62,052 bases of DNA from Candidatus Woesearchaeota archaeon (GTDB lineage: Archaea; Nanobdellota; Nanobdellia; Pacearchaeales; GW2011-AR1): contig CAYJQF010000001.1 in the NCBI GenBank assembly GCA_964372375.1, forward strand, positions 1 to 62,052. Reading direction: 5' to 3'. Shown in pieces: positions 3,869 to 50,022 of the stretch. The notes under the pieces were generated by a model that made no database searches, was not told the DNA's origin, and saw only the letters and a list, made by a program, of their open reading frames with translations. The position numbers were made by a program, and so were the translations under genes. Position 1 is the stretch's first letter. Each line of letters starts with the position of its first letter.

Positions 3869-4127
3869 GTAGACGAGTCGGCACGCTTGCCCCGTGCCAT
3901 CACACAAACGGGCATCATGGTGGACTTAAAGGAGCGCGTGACGCAGCGGCACGTCAGTCTTATGCCAGACGTTGACGTTTTGTCCTGTTCGATCGTGCTC
4001 CTGCGAATCGGGTCAGGTCAGGAATGAAGCAGCCCTAAACAGGACGCATGGTGCTTGCAGGGAAGCAAAACCGAGGAAGGTATGAGGGTTCTGTCGTACT
4101 CAAGCGAGGCAAACTCCCCGTCTACAA
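3869..4127 (+). ncRNA. ffs: signal recognition particle RNA (archaeal 7S/SRP RNA)
   Basis: The universal helix-8 signature GGTCAGGTCAGGAATGAAGCAGCC is at 4011-4034, including the GGAA tetraloop. 5' GTAGACG (3869-3875) pairs with 3' CGTCTAC (4119-4125). The region is GC-rich and has no ORF. The exact ends are uncertain by about 10 nt. Confidence 0.8.
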
Positions 4128-8587: not shown

Positions 8588-9241
8588 ATGCATCCTGAAA
8601 TTCAACAAAATATTCTGAAGTCAAATACAAGCATAGTAGGCATTGTATGTAAAGATGGAATTGTCATGGCAGCAGACCGGAGGGCAACTGCAGGCACTTT
8701 AATCATGAACAAAGACGCATTAAAGGTGCACAAGGTAAATGACTATCTTCTTGCTTCTTGGACAGGAGGAGTTGCAGATGCACAATTAACTCATAAAATA
8801 TTAGCTGCAGAGCTGAAACTTAAAGAGCTCAAAGCAAAAGTGCGTCCTACTATAAAAGAAGCAGCAAACTTGCTTGCGAACTTAATTTTTAGAAATATAC
8901 GAACACCATCAATGATTCCAAGTATCGTTGGAATGATTGTAGGCGGAGTAAATGAAGATGGAACAGCAGAATTATTCTCAATTGAGCCGGCGGGTAGCGT
9001 CATGAAAGTCAAGGATTATGATGCAAACTTCTCTTCAGGCATGCCCTATATCCTTGGTTTGCTTGAAAGAACATATAAGAAAGACCTCTCAGTAAAGGAA
9101 GGTGTTGAACTTGCAAAAGAATGTATCAAAGCTTCAACACAGCGCGATGTTGGTTCTGGCAATGGCATTGATGTATTTTCAATTACCAAAGAGGGCATTA
9201 AGCATGTCATCTCTGAAGAAATTGTAGCCGAATACAAGTAA
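8588..9241 (+). CDS. psmB: proteasome beta subunit
   Basis: A propeptide is followed by TSIVGIVCKDGIVMAADRRATAG (Ntn-hydrolase Thr1 context). Confidence 0.9.
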   Translation: MHPEIQQNILKSNTSIVGIVCKDGIVMAADRRATAGTLIMNKDALKVHKVNDYLLASWTGGVADAQLTHKILAAELKLKELKAKVRPTIKEAANLLANLIFRNIRTPSMIPSIVGMIVGGVNEDGTAELFSIEPAGSVMKVKDYDANFSSGMPYILGLLERTYKKDLSVKEGVELAKECIKASTQRDVGSGNGIDVFSITKEGIKHVISEEIVAEYK

Positions 9242-9257
9242 ATAGTTTATTGCAACA

Positions 9258-11138
9258 ATGGCAGATATTTTAAAAAGTATTAAAGAAGAATTACCTAAAA
9301 GTATAAGCGATGCTATGTTTGAAGGAGCAAATATCGTCCTTTACACTAGCGATAAAGAATTCTTTAAGACAGGAGAGCCAAAAGTCAAGCAAATTGTTGA
9401 TAAGATAAAGAAACGTATTGAATTACGGGCTGATAAAGAGGTACTTGCTTCAGAGGAAGAAACTGAGAAAACAGTTCGCGCTCTTGTTCCAGAAGAGGCA
9501 GGCATCACCAATATTATCTTTGATGTGCAACGCAGTACAGTGATTGTTGAAGCAAAGAAACCAGGGATAGTAATAGGAAAGCAAGGAGCGGTACTGTCAG
9601 ATATTAAGCGGGCGACATTATGGTCTCCAGTAGTCCAACGCAGCCCTGCTATTCCAAGCAAGATTACTGAGAAGATTCGTTCAGTGCTCTATGCGAATAA
9701 TAATTATCGAAGAAAATTCTTGAATGATATTGGCAAGAAGATTTACAACGATTGGAGCCCTGAAAAGATGGATATGTGGGTGCGGCTTACCTATCTTGGT
9801 GGAGGAAGGCAAGTGGGAAGATCTTGTTTACTCTTGCATACTCCAAACTCGAAAGTGCTCTTAGACTGTGGTATTAATCCGGCGTATGCAGAAGGCCAGG
9901 AACGTTTTCCCTACTTGAACGTATGCGAAATTGGAGATTTAAATTCAGTTGATGCAATTATTCTCTCGCATGCTCATCTTGACCATTCAGGCCTTATTCC
10001 TTATTTGTACAAAATGGGCTATAAAGGGCCGGTATATTTAACAGCGCCAACAAGGGATATTGCAGCCCTCCTTACTTTAGACTTTGTTGGTGTAGCGTAT
10101 AAGCAAGCAGCTTCTCCTCTCTATCGTGCAGAAGATATTAAGGAAATGGTACGACACTCAATTTGCCTTGAATATGGAGAAGTGACAGATATAACACCCG
10201 ATATTCGTATCACGCTCTATAATGCCGGCCATGTTCTGGGCTCAGCACAGGTGCACGTTAATATAGGTAATGGACTGCATAATTTTGTCTACGGAGCAGA
10301 TACGAACTATCGAAAAACAAGGCTCTTAGATCCTGCCGCAAATCATTTTCCGAGAGTAGAAACGCTTACTATCGAAGCAACATACGGTGGGAAAGAAAAT
10401 ACAATTCCACCGCGTCAAGAGTCAGAACAGCGCTTTCTGGAGTTGGTCAAAAAAACAATTGCACGTAACGGAAAGATTTTACTGCCTGAACTTGGATTAG
10501 GGCACGCACAGGAAACTCTCTTGCGTGTTGAAGAAGCAATTCGGTTTGGAGAACTGCCGCCAGTGCCCGTCTATCTTGACGGCATGCTTTGGGATATCAA
10601 CGCAATTCATACCGTTTATCCCGATTTTCTTTCCGCAAGCGTACGGAATCAAATTTTTCAGGATAATAACCCCTTTGTTTCCGATGTCTGCAAACGTGTG
10701 GGAAGTCCGGCAGAACGCAAAGAGGTGATTGAAGGAGGTCCCTGTATTATCATTGCGACATCAGGCATGTTAGTAGGCGGAGCGTCTGTTGAATATTTCA
10801 AAAATCTTGCAGGTAGTCAAGCAAACCTCATTGTCTTTGGTTGTTATCAGGCGCTCGGTTCATTAGGAAGACAGGTGCAAGAGGGAGGCAGGGACTTTTT
10901 TATTGATGGAGAGAAAGTGCAGGTTGCTATGGAAGTAGAAACCATCAGCGGATTCTCAGCACACTCAGGTCGCAATGAACTACTCCAATACGTGAGCAGA
11001 ATGCTGCCCAAACCTAAGAAAATTGTCGTGAATCATGGAGAAGTTTCCAGATGCCTTGACCTCGCTTCAAGCCTCTATAAACTCAACCGTGTAGAAACAC
11101 TAGTGCCGAGAAACCTGGAAACCATCAGGTTAAAGTAA
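9258..11138 (+). CDS. aCPSF1-type KH / metallo-beta-lactamase / beta-CASP ribonuclease
   Basis: 626 aa with an N-terminal KH-like region (VIVEAKKPGIVIGKQGA), the HAHLDHSG motif and a beta-CASP C-terminal region. Confidence 0.9.
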   Translation: MADILKSIKEELPKSISDAMFEGANIVLYTSDKEFFKTGEPKVKQIVDKIKKRIELRADKEVLASEEETEKTVRALVPEEAGITNIIFDVQRSTVIVEAKKPGIVIGKQGAVLSDIKRATLWSPVVQRSPAIPSKITEKIRSVLYANNNYRRKFLNDIGKKIYNDWSPEKMDMWVRLTYLGGGRQVGRSCLLLHTPNSKVLLDCGINPAYAEGQERFPYLNVCEIGDLNSVDAIILSHAHLDHSGLIPYLYKMGYKGPVYLTAPTRDIAALLTLDFVGVAYKQAASPLYRAEDIKEMVRHSICLEYGEVTDITPDIRITLYNAGHVLGSAQVHVNIGNGLHNFVYGADTNYRKTRLLDPAANHFPRVETLTIEATYGGKENTIPPRQESEQRFLELVKKTIARNGKILLPELGLGHAQETLLRVEEAIRFGELPPVPVYLDGMLWDINAIHTVYPDFLSASVRNQIFQDNNPFVSDVCKRVGSPAERKEVIEGGPCIIIATSGMLVGGASVEYFKNLAGSQANLIVFGCYQALGSLGRQVQEGGRDFFIDGEKVQVAMEVETISGFSAHSGRNELLQYVSRMLPKPKKIVVNHGEVSRCLDLASSLYKLNRVETLVPRNLETIRLK

Positions 11139-39680: not shown

Positions 39681-40438
39681 AAGCAGCACTATTTGACAGC
39701 AAAGGAGCAAGCACTGCAGACATTGAATTGCCTGCTTTGTTTGCCAGACCAATTCGTGAAGATCTCGTTGCAAAATACGTTGAAGCAACAAAGTTTGCTT
39801 CACGCCAGCCGTATGCCACCTATAAAGAGGCGGGCAAGCGGCATTCAGCTTCCGGGACGATTAGTCATAAGCGCCATGAGTGGAAAGGCCATTATGGTAA
39901 AGGGATTGCCCGGCTTCCTAGAAAATCAATGTGGCGCCGTGGCACGCAGTTTTACTGGGTGGGTGCTGAAGTTTCAAATACGCGTGGCGGCAGAGTTGCG
40001 CATCCTCCTTCGGGTCTAACTGCTTTCAGAAAGATAAACAAGAAAGAGCAGGAACAAGCATTTCATGGTGCACTGGCTGCGACTATGTCATCTTTATATA
40101 TTAAAAAAAGATATGCTACGCTTACAACTCCACGCATGTCTGCCGTTATTGAGTCTTTGCCGGGAAAAACAAAGGAACTTTTTGCTACACTTAAAAACAT
40201 TTTCGGGAATGCTTTTTCTCTGGTTATCAAGCAAAAAGCAGTGCGGGCAGGAAAGGGTAAACGCAGAGGTAGAAAATACAAGGCAAATGCTGGACTTTTA
40301 CTCGTGACAGGCACTAATGAGAGTAAGCCCTTTAAGGGAATAGATTTAGTACAAGCAAAAGAACTTGCCATTACTGATCTCTCTCCCTTGGGCAGGCTCA
40401 CCTTATTCACCAAGCAAGCCTTGAAGGAGTTAGCATGA
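39677..40438 (+). CDS. rpl4: 50S ribosomal protein uL4
   Basis: Archaeal L4 pattern plus position; 4-nt overlap with rpl3. Confidence 0.9.
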   Translation: MKAALFDSKGASTADIELPALFARPIREDLVAKYVEATKFASRQPYATYKEAGKRHSASGTISHKRHEWKGHYGKGIARLPRKSMWRRGTQFYWVGAEVSNTRGGRVAHPPSGLTAFRKINKKEQEQAFHGALAATMSSLYIKKRYATLTTPRMSAVIESLPGKTKELFATLKNIFGNAFSLVIKQKAVRAGKGKRRGRKYKANAGLLLVTGTNESKPFKGIDLVQAKELAITDLSPLGRLTLFTKQALKELA

Positions 40439-40677
40439 TACTAAAGCCAGTCACCTCAGAAAAAGCAGTAAAACTGATTGATACACAGAACACGCTCTTA
40501 TTCCAAGTTGAAAGACAAAATACCAAGGCAGAGATTCAGAAGGAAGTAGAAACCATCTTCAGCGTGAAAGTACGCGGAGTGAGAACTCTTGTCCACCAGA
40601 ATAAAAAGTTCGCCTATGTCAAACTCGATACGAAATATCCCGCTATTGACATAGCTACTAAGGTAGGGATGATGTAA
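40435..40677 (+). CDS. rpl23: 50S ribosomal protein uL23
   Basis: 80 aa, ILKPVTSEKAVKLID..NTLLFQV. Confidence 0.9.
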   Translation: MILKPVTSEKAVKLIDTQNTLLFQVERQNTKAEIQKEVETIFSVKVRGVRTLVHQNKKFAYVKLDTKYPAIDIATKVGMM

Positions 40678-40678
40678 T

Positions 40679-41068
40679 ATGAAAAGAACAATGTTTATCC
40701 GATGGCAAATATATGAATTGGATTTTCCAAGCAGAGTAGCAGGGCTTAATGAGTTAGTAACTTACTTCGGTGTTTCCCCAGAAGATGTCCAAACACATGT
40801 TTTTTTTAGATTGCCAGGTTTTCAAGACGGGACATACCAAATCGGTTTACAGAAACTTGAGTTACGTCAAGAACAATGTTTATCCGATGGAACCAAGATA
40901 GCAATGATTGGAACACACAAGCCAAAAGTATCGCTTATACCTATCAAAACGCCTGAAGCAGAAGAAATTTATGAAAAAATAGCAAGATTATCTTTAGATT
41001 ATATGCTTGGTTTTGTAGAAGGACCACCTATTCCTGAATTTACAAGGATGGCTGGACAGCATGGGTAA
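40679..41068 (+). CDS. hypothetical protein inserted between rpl23 and rpl2
   Basis: 129-aa ORF, 1 nt after the rpl23 stop and overlapping the rpl2 start by 8 nt. It is not r-protein-like, is AT-richer than its flanks and contains a 22-nt direct repeat read in two frames. Confidence 0.55.
   Translation: MKRTMFIRWQIYELDFPSRVAGLNELVTYFGVSPEDVQTHVFFRLPGFQDGTYQIGLQKLELRQEQCLSDGTKIAMIGTHKPKVSLIPIKTPEAEEIYEKIARLSLDYMLGFVEGPPIPEFTRMAGQHG
40684..40705. repeat. 22-nt direct repeat, copy 1 (AAGAACAATGTTTATCCGATGG)
   Basis: Exact match to 40869-40890. Confidence 0.95.
40869..40890. repeat. 22-nt direct repeat, copy 2
   Basis: Exact match to 40684-40705. The 185-nt offset puts the copies in different reading frames. 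Confidence 0.95.
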
Positions 41069-41759
41069 GCGTATCATTTCCCAGGCACGAGGTCATGGTT
41101 CTCTCTCATATCAGGCAAAGAAGCGCGCGTTTATCTACAAAGTAAAGTATCCAATGCATCAAGGTGCTGCTGAGGTGCTTACCGTATTCCATTCTGCAGC
41201 ACATTCAGCACCACTCCTCAAGGTCAGAGCAGGAAAAGAAATCTTCTACAACCCCGCATTCAATGGTGCAGTTTCTGGGCAGACTATTCTCATTTTAGGG
41301 ACGCAGGCACAGCCAGGAAACATTCTTATGCTCAAAGATATTCCGGCAGGTTCAGCAGTCTACAATATAGAAAACAATCCGGGTGATGGTGGAAAAATGA
41401 TTCGTGCAGCAGGTTCATCTGCACTATTGGTAAAGAAACACGAGCACAATAAAGTATCTCTGCTCATGCCTCATAAGAAGGAGATTATTGTCTCAGGTGA
41501 TTGCAGGGCAACCATGGGAGTAATTGCAGGTGCCGGCCGTATTCTCAAACCATTTATAAAGGCGGGGCCGAAGTGGTATAAAATGAAAGCACGTAATAAA
41601 CTCTGGCCTCGGACATCTGCAGTTAAGATGAACGCAGTAGATCATCCGTTCGGCTCTGGTCGGGGAAAGAGAATCAAGTCAAAGATTGCAAAGCGCAATG
41701 CACCACCAGGAACACGAGTAGGTCATATTCGCCCGAGCAGAACAGGGAGGAGAAGATAA
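41061..41759 (+). CDS. rpl2: 50S ribosomal protein uL2
   Basis: MGKRIISQARGHGS.., C-terminal VDHPFGSGRG. Confidence 0.93.
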   Translation: MGKRIISQARGHGSLSYQAKKRAFIYKVKYPMHQGAAEVLTVFHSAAHSAPLLKVRAGKEIFYNPAFNGAVSGQTILILGTQAQPGNILMLKDIPAGSAVYNIENNPGDGGKMIRAAGSSALLVKKHEHNKVSLLMPHKKEIIVSGDCRATMGVIAGAGRILKPFIKAGPKWYKMKARNKLWPRTSAVKMNAVDHPFGSGRGKRIKSKIAKRNAPPGTRVGHIRPSRTGRRR

Positions 41760-42163
41760 TGGTAGAAGAAGTGCTTGTCAGGTCAAAGGAAGTATTTTAC
41801 CGGGGTAAGAACCTGAATGAATTGAAAAATCTTGATGTTCGTGAAGTTGCGAAATACCTGCCCTCTCGAAGCCGTCGTTCAGTATTACGAAATTTCCAGG
41901 TCATAGAAAAGTTTGTAAAGCGCTGTGAGACGGCACTTGCAAACAATAAACGGATTCGAACTCATTTGCGTGACTTAGTGATTGTGCCTAAGCTGGTAGG
42001 TATGCACATTGCAGTCCATAGTGGCAAGGCGTTCAATGAAGTACAAATTAAACACACGATGATAGGTCATCGTCTGGGCGAATTTGCCTTAACGCGGGGC
42101 AGAGTCACTCATGGTAAACCAGGTCTGGGAGCAACGAAGAGCTCCTCGACGGAGAAGAAGTAA
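41759..42163 (+). CDS. rps19: 30S ribosomal protein uS19
   Basis: Archaeal S19 pattern (HSGKAFNEVQIKHTMIGHRLGEFALTR). Confidence 0.9.
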   Translation: MVEEVLVRSKEVFYRGKNLNELKNLDVREVAKYLPSRSRRSVLRNFQVIEKFVKRCETALANNKRIRTHLRDLVIVPKLVGMHIAVHSGKAFNEVQIKHTMIGHRLGEFALTRGRVTHGKPGLGATKSSSTEKK

Positions 42164-42164
42164 C

Positions 42165-42791
42165 ATGGAAAAGCAATATGCGCCAACAAATGCAGAGAAG
42201 AAGCAGCCACAGAAGATTAAGCAGAGCCAGCAATTGTCAAAGCAAAATACAAATGTCAAGTCAGAGAGAGGAGAGGAAAAACAGGAAGAAAAAAAGATAG
42301 ATGTTGTACCAGATACTACGAAAGGTCCAGAGATAAGAGAAACAAAAGAGAAAGAACAGAAACAAGAGACGAAGCAGGAAGCAAAGCCTCAGAAGGTCAA
42401 GAAAGAAGAAGCGATAGCTCGCGGAGATTCACTCTCCATGTCAAAGAAACACGGCATGTACTTGTGTTCATTCATCAAGCAGAAGAGTGTGGATACAGCA
42501 CTTGCAGAACTGGAGGAAGTGATAAAATTGAAGAGAGCCATACCCTTTAAGGGAGAGATCCCGCATCGCCATAATCCAGGCATGATGTCAGGAAGGTATC
42601 CGGTAAATGCTTCAAAATGCATGATTCAGGTTCTGAAAGGCTTGCGGGGAAATATACTTGCAAATGGACTTTCCGTGGATAAGGCAAAGATTTATTGGGC
42701 ATCAGCTTCCTGGGCATCACGCCCTGCACGACGAGGTGGCACGAGGTTTAAAAGAGCACACATCATCCTCAAAGCTAAGGAGTTTACCTAA
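42165..42791 (+). CDS. rpl22: 50S ribosomal protein uL22 with an N-terminal K/E/Q-rich extension of about 95 aa
   Basis: The core starts near ARGDSLSMSKKHGMYLCSFIKQKSVDTALAELEEVI. ATG 42165 lies just after the rps19 stop, so the ORF-track start at 42111 was rejected. Confidence 0.88.
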   Translation: MEKQYAPTNAEKKQPQKIKQSQQLSKQNTNVKSERGEEKQEEKKIDVVPDTTKGPEIRETKEKEQKQETKQEAKPQKVKKEEAIARGDSLSMSKKHGMYLCSFIKQKSVDTALAELEEVIKLKRAIPFKGEIPHRHNPGMMSGRYPVNASKCMIQVLKGLRGNILANGLSVDKAKIYWASASWASRPARRGGTRFKRAHIILKAKEFT

Positions 42792-43664: not shown

Positions 43665-43973
43665 ATGGAAAGCGATCCTGATCCACGGCTCGGACTACCA
43701 ACGGGCGCTGATATATTCGAGGAGATTGCCAAGAGCGAGCAGAAAATAAGCATCACTACCGTTTCACGGCGATACGGCAAGATTACTACGCTTGTTCAAG
43801 GATTTGAGAAGACAGTTGATATCAAAGGCACTGCAAAAAAGCTTAAAGAGCGGCTTGCATGTGGGGGAACAGTCAAAGAAAATATTATTGAACTTCAGGG
43901 AAATCACAAGAAACAAGTCAAACCAATTTTGGTCAAGCTTGGATTCCCTGAGGCATCCATAACCGACTCATAA
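43665..43973 (+). CDS. sui1: translation initiation factor aSUI1/eIF1
   Basis: RRYGKITTLVQGFE..LKERLACGGTVKENIIELQGNHK. Confidence 0.88.
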   Translation: MESDPDPRLGLPTGADIFEEIAKSEQKISITTVSRRYGKITTLVQGFEKTVDIKGTAKKLKERLACGGTVKENIIELQGNHKKQVKPILVKLGFPEASITDS

Positions 43974-43974
43974 C

Positions 43975-44319
43975 ATGGCACCAAAAACAAAGGAAACAAA
44001 CAGCAAGAAAACGCAAGAAAGGAAGGAAGTAGCAGTGCCTACACGTGGGAGAATCTTCGAAGGCACGATTACAAAGAAATTCGCCACCCGCGCAGTCCTT
44101 GAATTTGAGCGCACGATATATATGAAAAAGTTTGAGCGTTTCTACAAGAAGAAAACAAGGATTCATGCGCGCATTCCTGCAGGCATGCAGGTTGAGGTAG
44201 GAGAGTACGTACGTGTTCAGGAATGCAGGCCGTTAAGCAAGATTATTCATCATGTAGTTATTGAGAAACTAAGGTCAGTTGAGCAAAAAAGTAAGCAGGA
44301 AACGGGAGATAAAAAATGA
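43975..44319 (+). CDS. rps17: 30S ribosomal protein uS17
   Basis: GRIFEGTITKKFATRAVLEFER..VRVQECRPLSK. Confidence 0.9.
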   Translation: MAPKTKETNSKKTQERKEVAVPTRGRIFEGTITKKFATRAVLEFERTIYMKKFERFYKKKTRIHARIPAGMQVEVGEYVRVQECRPLSKIIHHVVIEKLRSVEQKSKQETGDKK

Positions 44320-44600
44320 GTACTATAACTATTTATGATGTTGATAGAAAATACTGGCAGGCATTAGAGGGAATTAATGCATGTATGGAGATTGTAGAAG
44401 GAAATGGTTCAAGTCAAGAATTTTTAAGAGAATTTAGATCTGTTGCCGAGGAATACCCATCTGCAGAACTTCTGAGGGGTAATAGCAATATCTTCGTCTG
44501 GGACAAGGTTCTTTCAGAAAAGGTTTCTTCTTTCAGGGATAAATTAGTAGAAGTATTTGGGACTAAGGATGCACTATTAGCAGAGGCACTGACGCAATGA
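44316..44600 (+). CDS. hypothetical acidic protein inserted between rps17 and rpl14
   Basis: 94-aa ORF with ATGA overlaps at both ends. About 16 acidic against 10 basic residues, AT-richer than its flanks, no recognised family. It is not the Rpp29 expected near here in many archaea. Confidence 0.55.
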   Translation: MSTITIYDVDRKYWQALEGINACMEIVEGNGSSQEFLREFRSVAEEYPSAELLRGNSNIFVWDKVLSEKVSSFRDKLVEVFGTKDALLAEALTQ

Positions 44601-44998
44601 AAGCAGTATCTGCTCTCGTTACTCGAGGCCTGAACATAGGAAGTAAAGTCGTTGCCGCTGACAATTCAGGAGCCCGCATTGTTAGAATTACTTCAGTCGT
44701 TCATGGCAAATCCAGGAAAGGCAGGCAGCAGTTTGCAAAAGTAGCGGATTGGGTAAAGGTATCAGTGCGTGCAGGTAAGCCGGAGATGAAAGGGCAGGTC
44801 TTTGATGCAGTGATTATCAGGCAACGTATGCCCTATCGGAGAAGGACGGGAGAGCGAGTTTGCTTTGAAGATAATGCGGTTGCCCTGCTCAAGGATGAAA
44901 AAGGCAATCCCAAAGGCACGTTCATTAAAGGACCGGTAGCCAGGGAAATACATGAACGTTGGAAGGAGGTCGCCAAACTGGCGCAATATGTGCTATGA
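44597..44998 (+). CDS. rpl14: 50S ribosomal protein uL14
   Basis: ADNSGARIVRITSV..; 133 aa. Confidence 0.93.
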   Translation: MKAVSALVTRGLNIGSKVVAADNSGARIVRITSVVHGKSRKGRQQFAKVADWVKVSVRAGKPEMKGQVFDAVIIRQRMPYRRRTGERVCFEDNAVALLKDEKGNPKGTFIKGPVAREIHERWKEVAKLAQYVL

Positions 44999-45357
44999 GT
45001 AATTCAAAAATTTCTGATGAGAGAAGAGTAGAACTTTTGAGAGAAATTGCAGCAGGAAATGAAAATTTGCTTGAATTTATAGCATGCGAGAAAGATGCAA
45101 AAGATTTTCAAGAATTTCTAGAGTTTGTACACAATGTTGAAGTAGGGTCTTTGGAGGCAGCTCGTAAAATAGCCGATAAATATCAACCTATAGTCGTAAA
45201 CTTACTTGTCATGCCTTCTGCAGATTATCAATGTCCAAGACAGGAATACCGACAATTGAATAGATTTGCAGTAGAGAGGGCCCAGATAAAAGTTCAAGAG
45301 TATCTCGCAGCAAGGCAGATAATAGCGCATATTGGAATGGTAGGAGGCGAGCAATGA
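44995..45357 (+). CDS. hypothetical acidic protein inserted between rpl14 and rpl24
   Basis: 120 aa from ATG 44995, with ATGA overlaps at the rpl14 stop and the rpl24 start. Sampled GC is about 32 %. No recognised family. Confidence 0.55.
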   Translation: MSNSKISDERRVELLREIAAGNENLLEFIACEKDAKDFQEFLEFVHNVEVGSLEAARKIADKYQPIVVNLLVMPSADYQCPRQEYRQLNRFAVERAQIKVQEYLAARQIIAHIGMVGGEQ

Positions 45358-48758: not shown

Positions 48759-49222
48759 GAACAGTACGGAGACGCAGGCATGAAGCAAAAACAGATTATA
48801 AAGCACGACTTACTTTATTGAAAGCAGGCAGGCCTCGCTTGGTTGTCAGAAAGACGAATAGGTATATAATTGCTCAATTTGTGGTAAGTGAACAAGCGCA
48901 AGATACCGTGATAGTTGGTGTTTTCTCTAAATTATTATTGCAGAAAGGATGGCCTGAAGCGCATGCAGGCAGCCTCAAAAGTCTTCCTGCTGCGTATCTC
49001 ACCGGACTCTTGCTTGGCAAGCTCGCGAAAGGCAAAGTTACTAATGCAATTCTTGACTTGGGCATGTACCGCAATGTGCATAAGTCACGAGTGTATGCTG
49101 TGCTGAAAGGAGTACTTGATGCAGGCATTCTTATTACTCATGATCCTGCAGCACTTCCCGGAGAGCAGGAATTTGCAAAGAATAAAGAATTAAACGCGCT
49201 GATAACCAAGGTAAAACTATAA
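48755..49222 (+). CDS. rpl18: 50S ribosomal protein uL18
   Basis: RRRRHEAKTDYKARLTLLKAGRPRLVVRKTNRYIIAQ. Confidence 0.9.
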   Translation: MRTVRRRRHEAKTDYKARLTLLKAGRPRLVVRKTNRYIIAQFVVSEQAQDTVIVGVFSKLLLQKGWPEAHAGSLKSLPAAYLTGLLLGKLAKGKVTNAILDLGMYRNVHKSRVYAVLKGVLDAGILITHDPAALPGEQEFAKNKELNALITKVKL

Positions 49223-50022
49223 TGGCAGAGAAAGAATCAATTAACAAGCCTAAGGATATGATCGAAGCAACGCCAGAAGAATTGGTAAAGCTTGAGCAGG
49301 AAGCACAAGCTACCGTAGCAGAGGCAGTCGTCCTAACAAGAGCTGAGCAGACAGCAGCACGCGAGAAAGAAGCGGAGCGGCAGGCCTTGGATTCTTGGGT
49401 GCCTAAGACGGCATTAGGTAGAAGAGTCAAGGCAAAAGAGAATACTGATATTGATGCTGTTCTTTCTTCGGGCAAGAAGATTCTTGAGCCGCAGATTATT
49501 GATTCACTCTTGAAAGTAGAGTATGATCTTTTATTAATAGGTCAGGCTAAGGGTAAGTTTGGTGGTGGGAAGCGCAGGGCCTGGCGACAAACCCAGAAAA
49601 AGACTATGGAGGGGAACGTGGTTACCTTTTCCTGTATGGCGGTCGTTGGTGACAAGAAAGGCCACGTGGGTGTTGGCTATGGCAGAGCAAAAGAAACCCT
49701 GCCTTCGCGGGCAAAAGCGATTCGTAAGGCAAAGCTTAATCTATTTAAGATTACCCGAGGGTTCGAATCTCCTACTGATACGATTCGTGAGCCCCACACC
49801 GTTCCATTCGTTGTTCAAGGCAAGTGTGGTTCTATTAGGATTAAATTAATTCCAGCACCGCGAGGGACTGGTTTGGTTATTGGTGACCAAGGCAAGAAGA
49901 TTTTACGGCTTGCAGGAATTCATGACGTGTATGCAGTCACTAAAGGGCAAACCAGGACAACTTTCAATGTTGCGAAAGCGCTCATAGATGCGTTACAAAA
50001 AACAAATCTCATACTCTTATGA
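49222..50022 (+). CDS. rps5: 30S ribosomal protein uS5 with an N-terminal charged extension of about 55 aa
   Basis: The core runs from WVPKTALGRRV..; the extension is acidic and helical (ELVKLEQEAQATVAEA..). Confidence 0.9.
   Translation: MAEKESINKPKDMIEATPEELVKLEQEAQATVAEAVVLTRAEQTAAREKEAERQALDSWVPKTALGRRVKAKENTDIDAVLSSGKKILEPQIIDSLLKVEYDLLLIGQAKGKFGGGKRRAWRQTQKKTMEGNVVTFSCMAVVGDKKGHVGVGYGRAKETLPSRAKAIRKAKLNLFKITRGFESPTDTIREPHTVPFVVQGKCGSIRIKLIPAPRGTGLVIGDQGKKILRLAGIHDVYAVTKGQTRTTFNVAKALIDALQKTNLILL

Follow-up and report, generated by a model that had tools for sequence, protein, structure and literature searches.

Ribosomal protein (r-protein) operons are textbook cases of frozen gene order and are used on that basis as phylogenetic markers. 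The DNA analysed here, a contig stretch of 62 kb (62,052 nucleotides, hereafter the window) from a Candidatus Woesearchaeota archaeon, carries such an operon at 38.7-52.3 kb (13.6 kb), and an open reading frame (ORF) of 129 codons, designated ORF129, stands in it between the genes of uL23 and uL2. What is this gene, and how is it accommodated there? Our analysis makes it on balance probable that ORF129 is a genuine orphan gene, a dispensable cassette that shares the transcript of the operon, is probably translated by termination-reinitiation and would thereby bridge ribosomes to uL2; as part of the same reading, and on the same balance, it would be the non-homologous replacement of another gene family (family X, described below) in this slot.

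Structure of the uL23-uL2 junction

The features of the junction are the following.

40435..40677, + strand: uL23 gene (rpl23), 80 amino acids (aa), TAA at 40675-40677, Pfam PF00276 (6.3e-14)
40662..40673, + strand: purine-rich, weakly Shine-Dalgarno (SD)-like stretch GGTAGGGATGAT within the final codons of uL23, at a distance of 6-17 nt upstream of the ORF129 ATG
40679..41068, + strand: ORF129, 129 codons (129 aa), isoelectric point (pI) 5.9, ATG at 40679, TAA at 41066-41068, filling the junction
41061..41068, + strand: stop-start overlap ATGGGTAA, 8 nt, the uL2 ATG (41061) lying 5 nt upstream of the ORF129 TAA
41061..41759, + strand: uL2 gene (rpl2), 232 aa, Pfam PF03947 (1.7e-35)

A single base (T, 40678) separates the uL23 stop codon from the ORF129 start codon, the insertion between uL23 and uL2 amounts to 383 nt, and no minus-strand ORF longer than 39 aa was found in the gap. 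The coordinates of ORF129, its 1-nt spacing after the rpl23 stop and its 8-nt overlap with the rpl2 ATG had all been given in a first-pass annotation, made from the sequence without database searches, and proved exact on re-reading. As an extension or a fragment of one of its neighbours, ORF129 was rejected: no match to Ribosomal_L23 or Ribosomal_L2 was obtained at E <= 1, and it is read in a frame of its own, from its own ATG to its own stop. Since uL23 and uL2 each match their own Pfam model and have normal archaeal lengths, ORF129 is no extension of either.

The junction has the geometry of coupled gene pairs, with co-directional genes, a +1-nt spacer and an 8-nt overlap (criterion from PMC10666635). 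Coupling by termination-reinitiation requires an overlap or a very short spacer and is abolished by a spacer of about 20 nt (PMC10666635; PMC6728339), and the spacing of ORF129 matches this experimental requirement in archaea and bacteria (PMC10666635; PMC6728339). The putative set-up for translational coupling seen at first pass stands to this extent, as geometry, and no further. The exact SD core of the GGTAGGGATGAT stretch is only 4 nt long, and an equivalent uL23 ending, GG(N)AT(G/C/A)AT(N)TA[A/G], was present in 24 of the 24 loci listed, whether or not an insert followed.

ORF129 as a coding sequence and an orphan gene

GC contents at the first, second and third codon positions of ORF129 (GC1, GC2 and GC3) are.50,.36 and.25, respectively, and this order, GC1 > GC2 > GC3, is a clear coding pattern. 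Its GC3 of 0.25 compares with 0.36-0.48 across all r-protein genes of the operon and is among the five lowest of the 78 window ORFs. Total GC had been described as lower than in the flanking genes; this applies with respect to uL2 (37.2% in ORF129 versus 46.5%), but uL23 itself reaches only 40.3%, which leaves GC3 as the sharper signal. A rough hand estimate from base composition puts the chance occurrence of an open 129-codon frame at ~1e-4. From this estimate, the codon-position pattern and the junction-filling geometry shared with 171 of 226 gaps in relatives (see below), a chance ORF can be regarded as excluded.

The deduced product contains 14 K+R and 16 D+E residues, and its pI of 5.9 contrasts with those of uL23 (9.8), uL2 (11.2) and all r-proteins of the operon (9.1-11.6). 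It is thus acidic and, as first annotated, not r-protein-like. It is probably a soluble protein of ~15 kDa, beta-rich with a C-terminal helix, and strain- or species-specific.

Searches for relatives covered profile, sequence and nucleotide collections. No family was obtained from Pfam, NCBIfam, PHROGs or PADLOC at permissive thresholds (E <= 1 to 10), and no chain from PDB sequences at E <= 10; in Rfam, region 40300-41300 gave no match at the gathering threshold, the best permissive one being isrI (21 bits, E = 0.62). The initial remark that no family could be recognised therefore holds in all these databases. When 5.8 billion cluster representatives, standing for about 15 billion proteins, were searched by word index, ORF129 matched itself alone; it forms a singleton 90% cluster. 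Exhaustive HMMER comparison with 1.84 billion representatives returned ORF129 and two giant proteins (5,455 and 6,040 aa; E = 4.5e-8 and 1.1e-8), both made of dozens of Big_13/Big_3_3/Big_7 immunoglobulin (Ig)-like repeats, which are considered with the alternative explanations. No relatives were detected in IMG/VR, or by tblastn in GenBank phages (best E = 0.4). In 160 related loci, tblastn, blastn and alternative-frame searches found nothing, and no source copy of the insert was found by blastn and six-frame tblastn in these loci and the window. On these sequence comparisons, ORF129 is an orphan, or taxonomically restricted, gene with no detectable relative. A single-sequence AlphaFold2 (AF2) model reached a predicted local distance difference test (pLDDT) score of 35; it is unusable at this score and was left out of the fold search.

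Distribution of junction ORFs in related loci

For comparison, 17 operon genes were located in 161 related DPANN loci (Pace-, Woese- and Nanoarchaeota; labelled L002 etc.) and every junction was measured. Adjacent r-protein genes were separated by gaps of at least 150 nt in 226 cases, and in 171 of these one same-strand ORF covered at least 90% of the gap. Counted from the upstream stop, most junction ORFs start at -4, +1 or -1; counted from the downstream ATG, most end at -1 or +4. The uL23-uL2 junction was the most used slot, being occupied in 43 of 133 loci; the contiguity of these two genes, taken as universal at first pass, does not extend to this DPANN clade. Other occupied slots included uL14-uL24 (23 of 96), uL4-uL23 (22 of 126), and uL3-uL4, uL2-uS19 and uS17-uL14 (19 each). 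Small same-strand ORFs were thus found at uL23-uL2 and about a dozen other operon junctions, mostly unrelated to one another, with nine or ten of them per genome in L002, L015, L033 and L034.

Recognisable domains were rare among these ORFs. Pfam assigned one to 8 of the 141 ORFs scanned (six RNase_T-like exonucleases at uL4-uL23, one HD domain and one winged helix-turn-helix), and a transmembrane-like segment was found in 5 of 172. GC1 exceeded GC3 in 98% of 147 junction ORFs, and GC3 was lower than in the flanking r-protein genes (mean -0.055, p = 2e-15) as well as in long ORFs of the same locus (mean -0.042, p = 3e-12). In 37% of cassettes, an SD core of 5 nt or more immediately precedes the r-protein gene that follows, compared with 4% at random internal positions. 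No paralogues of junction ORFs were present in the +/-10 kb flanks, the RNase_T-like gene excepted. Descriptions of orphan ORFs interleaved in DPANN r-protein operons were not found in the literature, of which our coverage is incomplete; cassette-like orphan genes in the r-protein operon are a clade-wide pattern that is apparently undescribed.

Some junctions of relatives hold longer genes. A ~200-aa gene of the RNase_T / Rv2179c-like 3'-5' exonuclease type recurs at uL4-uL23 in several relatives, and one locus (L007) retains a 52-aa remnant of it. An HD-domain phosphohydrolase (195 aa) occupies uL23-uL2 at L022:2794-3381, and two paralogous ORFs of ~260 aa lie at uL4-uL23 and uL23-uL2 in a further locus (L051:8096-8878 and 9205-10008). 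The copies of the RNase_T-like gene are located as follows.

At uL4-uL23: L008:6178-6816, L084:1275-1904, L085:5827-6426, L118:1030-1611, L120:5737-6387, L140:5776-6399
Further downstream copy: L002:16745-17368

Within the window itself, two further insertions, at 44316 and 44995, had been pointed out along with ORF129, and both are present.

44316..44600, + strand: ORF94, second orphan cassette, uS17-uL14 junction, ATGA overlaps at both ends, pI 4.6, GC3 0.28, singleton cluster
44995..45357, + strand: ORF120, third orphan cassette, uL14-uL24 junction, ATGA overlaps at both ends, pI 5.2, GC3 0.26, singleton cluster

The start of ORF120 on record is the ATG at 44995. ORF94 gave no family match in Pfam, NCBIfam, PHROGs or PADLOC. 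An EIxxGN..EF motif and resembling 5' ends had raised the possibility that ORF94 and ORF120 are paralogues, which was rejected because the similarity is not significant (p = 0.38); neither showed significant similarity to ORF129.

Turnover and selection

In a uL23+uL2 tree, sister loci alternate between an occupied and an empty uL23-uL2 junction. The flanking DNA of L009, which is empty, and L010, with an insert of 357 nt, is 87-88% identical, and the edges of the indel are exactly the uL23 stop and the uL2 ATG. Another pair, L005 and L006, shares uL23 and uL2 proteins of 96% and 91% identity, yet carries unrelated junction ORFs of 109 and 111 aa (L005:9671-10000 versus L006:297-632; Smith-Waterman z = 0.7) that are alike over their first ~30 nt only (MxxQQ...). 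Flanking proteins are equally close in L125 and L128 (96% and 91%), whose junction ORFs are homologous and remain 75% identical. By this comparison of sequences at the same flank identity, the difference between L005 and L006 is one of replacement, not divergence.

The ratio of nonsynonymous to synonymous substitution rates (dN/dS) was available from only two unsaturated homologous cassette pairs, and was 0.23 for L125/L128 and 0.52 for L032/L149 (72% identical). These values indicate that such cassettes encode proteins under relaxed purifying selection; nonsynonymous divergence of cassettes was three to five times that of their neighbours.

The nearest relatives of the window locus, with uL2 76-79% identical, have unrelated ORFs or nothing at uL23-uL2. 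Given this lack of conservation, we regard ORF129 as dispensable accessory cargo rather than as a ribosome component. The first of the two origins initially proposed for it, recently acquired cargo hitch-hiking on the operon, fits its singleton status, the unrelated or absent ORFs of relatives and its outlying GC3.

Family X and the occupation of the uL23-uL2 slot

All-against-all comparison of junction ORFs delineated one widespread group, named family X in this analysis and corresponding to no published family. It comprises 25 members of ~60-165 aa, mostly acidic (20 of 25), at six junctions: uL23-uL2 (14 members), uL3-uL4, uL4-uL23, uL2-uS19, uS19-uL22 and uL22-uS3. Its loci include L002, L095 and L134, and some genomes have two members, which together with the number of junctions used implies that cassettes also move or duplicate between junctions. 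The family is conserved across very distant loci. Its uL23-uL2 members are spread over the whole tree, and this distribution suggests that family X was the ancestral occupant of the slot, repeatedly lost or replaced. Its profile gave twilight signals for about nine more uL23-uL2 ORFs and none for the ORF of the sister locus L084. Profile searches with family X alignments recovered little beyond the query sequences. The structural model of the family (pLDDT 70) consists of a short helix, seven strands and a C-terminal helix; it matched no PDB fold (best E = 0.09, TM score about 0.2), and the family has no Pfam counterpart either.

ORF129 resembles family X by its slot (14 clear family members there), by its size, which is close to the ~105-135 aa of the family, and by an acidic character that most family members have, and the modelled beta-rich core followed by a C-terminal helix may be likened to the fold expected for ORF129. 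Unlike family X, it does not have the N-terminal M-T-T/E-Q and C-terminal EY...L..AGLW motifs. Membership was rejected, the family hidden Markov model (HMM) scoring ORF129 at -1.8 bits (p = 0.69 versus its own shuffles) and hhalign giving a probability of 0.2%; in phmmer, ORF129 reached only E > 1 against every junction ORF.

Internal features of ORF129

ORF129 contains a direct repeat and a thymine tract.

40684..40705, + strand: first copy of a direct repeat of exactly 22 identical nt, AAGAACAATGTTTATCCGATGG, translated here as KRTMFIRW
40869..40890, + strand: second copy of this 22-mer, lying 185 nt downstream in a codon phase different from that of the first, translated here as QEQCLSDG
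40800..40807, + strand: T8 tract, codons V-F-F-R

The 22-mer is the longest exact repeat in the window, none of 100 shuffles gave any match, and it is absent from 160 related loci. Outside the 22-mer, identity at offset 185 is at background level, and a tandem duplication around it was rejected as the origin of ORF129. A very recent rearrangement, an installation scar and an assembly loop are possible origins of the repeat.

The T8 tract is the sole sense-strand T-run of at least 7 in the operon. U-tracts act as archaeal termination signals, and internal terminators are known in archaeal r-protein operons (PMC10450193); by analogy, the T8 tract may be a partial terminator that attenuates transcription before uL2. 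T-runs are 2-3.5 times commoner in cassettes than in r-protein genes, and T6 or longer occurs in 21 of 145 cassettes; with so modest an excess, the T8 tract is no general cassette feature. A TATA-like sequence, CTTTAGATTATATG, was noticed at 40992-41005, upstream of uL2.

Proposed mode of expression

With 1 nt upstream and an overlap downstream, the edges of ORF129 leave no room for signals of its own, and the cassette would depend on the operon for its transcription. After termination at the uL23 UAA, ribosomes would reinitiate 1 nt downstream, at the AUG at 40679, and those terminating at the ORF129 UAA would reinitiate at the uL2 AUG, 5 nt upstream. Because neither ORF129 nor uL2 has a strong SD sequence, reinitiation by terminating ribosomes appears to be the most plausible route. 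Translation of ORF129 would in this way keep uL2 coupled to uL23 across the 383-nt insertion, and such bridging would account for the survival of those inserts alone whose frame runs open from one junction to the next.

Several points weigh against this reading. What it says of translation and expression is drawn from sequence and geometry. No SD core of at least 5 nt was found upstream of ORF129 or of uL2, so that the route of initiation is deduced from geometry alone. The closest uL2 sequences come from metagenome-assembled genomes labelled Woesearchaeota, Pacearchaeota or Nanoarchaeota (<=78% identity) and from metagenome contigs (<=77%), the species of the window being absent from both collections scanned; with no closer relatives and no ORF129 homologue, selection on ORF129 (dN/dS) is not measurable. 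At uL2 identities of 76-79%, homologous cassettes are already down to 30-36%, and replacement is therefore not strictly separable from extreme divergence in the case of ORF129. The exact 22-nt repeat may be the trace of a very recent rearrangement or point to a fault of assembly. Finally, part of the transcripts could end at the T8 tract, within the cassette, and co-expression would then be less simple.

Alternative explanations

A first alternative, to which we give a minor but real chance, is that ORF129 is a young or de novo proto-gene serving as a translational bridge. The insert would be kept open because an untranslated spacer of 383 nt would uncouple uL2, its polypeptide being functionless or nearly so and free to drift. 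The loss of coupling with spacers of ~20 nt provides a selective reason for ORF-shaped inserts, and the singleton status of ORF129, with no traceable source, is what a young gene would show. Its GC3, far below that of the window, is as expected for weak codon selection under AT-biased mutation, and the same applies to 77-80% of cassettes. The occurrence of the 22-mer in two frames argues for very recent reshuffling, beyond upkeep by protein-level selection. The unconfident AF2 model was counted in the same direction, although a low pLDDT from a single sequence is uninformative. On the other side, a GC1 of.50 with a GC3 of.25 is a mature coding pattern, beyond mere avoidance of stops, the homologous cassettes found elsewhere have dN/dS values of 0.23-0.52 and not about 1, and family X has been kept across very distant loci.

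A second explanation, in our opinion improbable, is that the product is a lineage-specific ribosome-associated factor, for instance an acidic protein that escorts or chaperones the very basic uL2 and is produced beside its client by coupled translation. Dedicated acidic chaperones for r-proteins exist in eukaryotes. The three window cassettes are all acidic (pI 4.6-5.9), and so are most cassettes flanking uL2 (23 of 41 at uL23-uL2 and 13 of 16 at uL2-uS19). Across all junctions, however, cassette pI is mixed, with a median of 8.0, and no known family of ribosomal, assembly or translation proteins resembles ORF129. Were it a factor that the ribosome needs, one would not expect its junction to hold unrelated ORFs, or no ORF, in sister loci. 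The second of the origins initially proposed, a factor of this kind, thus received no support, the gene being absent from sister loci whose uL2 is 76-79% identical, and its product acidic and without family.

It is very unlikely that the contig is chimeric or looped at the 22-nt repeat, the 129-codon frame then existing in no cell. The suspicion comes from an exact 22-mer, the longest exact repeat of the window, occurring twice at a distance of 185 nt; 22 nt is close to the smallest k-mers of metagenome assemblers. When one copy and the intervening 163 nt are removed from the sequence, what remains is an ORF of 30 codons with an untranslated spacer of about 100 nt, an arrangement unlike the junction-filling rule observed in 171 of 226 gaps, and the arrangement as assembled is mildly favoured on this ground. 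The present frame, moreover, ends exactly on the uL2 start, and its 129-aa product is found unchanged in both NCBI and Logan, two sources that are possibly not independent assemblies.

Capture of an Ig-like (Big_13-type) repeat fragment from a giant surface protein gene, now a free small protein, is just as improbable: the E-values of ~1e-8 to the two giant proteins are inflated, one weak match (~10-30 bits) being summed over many near-identical repeats, no Big_* Pfam model matched at E <= 1, and an HMM of 34 repeat units, although it reached 10.2 bits over residues 31-86 (a stretch that coincides with predicted beta strands) where 0 of 2000 shuffles did so, aligned only the C-terminal half of the repeat, in a test that was post hoc on the best of 1.8 billion targets. 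As a description of residues 31-86, a beta-sandwich-like core is a weak lead from this sequence comparison.

Comparison with known systems

The gene order of the window is that of the archaeal r-protein cluster. It reads PCNA, uL3, uL4, uL23, uL2, uS19, uL22, uS3, uL29, SUI1, uS17 and uL14, followed by uL24, eS4, uL5, uS14, uS8, uL6, eL32, eL19, uL18, uS5, uL30, uL15 and SecY. Such clusters have non-ribosomal residents, namely Rpp29, SUI1/aIF1, SecY and adenylate kinase, which like ORF129 are co-transcribed and tightly spaced; in the window, SUI1 is placed as follows.

43665-43973: SUI1, window resident of the r-protein cluster

Rpp29, SUI1 and SecY are conserved families at fixed positions, whereas ORF129 and most junction ORFs are unique and turn over between sister genomes. 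In distant Woesearchaeota loci, the SUI1-uS17 gaps hold canonical Rpp29 (80-95 aa, PF01868); in the window this gap is 1 nt long (43973-43975) and without an Rpp29 gene, as it is in close relatives. A junction ORF of L010 clustered with Rpp29 genes by BLAST, yet gave no Pfam Rpp29 match and was rejected as such.

ORF129 also recalls the orphan genes that form flexible islets between core genes. Like them, it has no homologue outside one genome, is short, has a low GC3 and evolves fast; it varies in presence among close relatives and is bordered by highly conserved genes. That orphan genes stand between core genes is common, but nucleotide-exact junctions inside the r-protein operon are not their usual place. 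Unlike ordinary islets, ORF129 lies within the most conserved operon known, with a 1-nt spacer and an 8-nt overlap, and its slot is one of many along the same operon across the whole clade.

Integron gene cassettes may be considered the closest functional analogue. Like the junction ORFs, they are small, promoterless, mostly ORFan, in one orientation and of variable content, and they depend on an upstream promoter. Junction ORFs differ in that spacings of 0-1 nt or overlaps leave no space for attC, and in being interleaved with essential genes rather than arrayed after attI; their expression, unlike that of integron cassettes, would depend on translational coupling. As an integron gene cassette proper, ORF129 was rejected: it ends inside the uL2 start with no intergenic DNA, and inverted repeats are weak and span into uL2. 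No integron integrase was found among the operon genes checked in the window.

Phage morons and free-standing homing-endonuclease genes are likewise wedged between syntenic genes, lower in GC and sporadic. ORF129 differs from them by its location in a cellular operon, having no promoter or terminator of its own, no nuclease or other recognisable domain and no phage or viral relative. As a mobile element (insertion sequence, miniature inverted-repeat transposable element or homing endonuclease) it was rejected, with no transposase or nuclease domain. The insert has no flanking repeats, the only exact repeat lying within ORF129, and in relatives the indels are bounded by the stop and the ATG, without target-site duplications.

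Three other features of the window were recorded. The uL22 gene (42111-42791) has an apparent Lys/Glu-rich N-terminal extension of ~75 aa and overlaps uS19 by 53 nt, a spacing of -53 that recurs in several relatives. The uS5 gene (49222-50022) encodes 266 aa, of which ~120 precede the first Pfam domain. At 3981-4067, an 87-nt Rfam match to Bacteria_small_SRP (RF00169, 53.6 bits), with no Archaea_SRP match, may represent a strongly reduced signal recognition particle (SRP) RNA.

Conclusion

The DPANN clade breaks the rule of frozen order, with up to nine or ten junctions per genome filled by small, fast-evolving and mostly unique genes of nucleotide-exact fit, and the value of ORF129 is that of an entry point to this clade-wide cassette pattern. 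A broader proposal, which we advance tentatively and consider less probable than not, is that in this clade the r-protein operon serves promoterless orphan genes as an expression platform or nursery, its stop-start junctions being the sites at which new ORFs are inserted and swapped and between which they move. Expression would proceed purely by co-transcription and termination-reinitiation, selection for coupling would force every insert to be open, and the operon would function like an integron cassette array that lacks attC and integrase and is embedded in essential genes. ORF129 would then be a freshly installed cassette, and the 22-nt repeat a scar of its installing or remodelling.

Marker-gene pipelines and operon-based binning checks should not score such interruptions as misassemblies. 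If the pattern is as proposed, these operons would offer a natural system for the entry of new genes into essential, highly expressed operons and would show how translational coupling limits what may be inserted. They would also bear on the orphan proteins of reduced-genome symbionts, and on whether such proteins take part in ribosome biology or merely use its expression.

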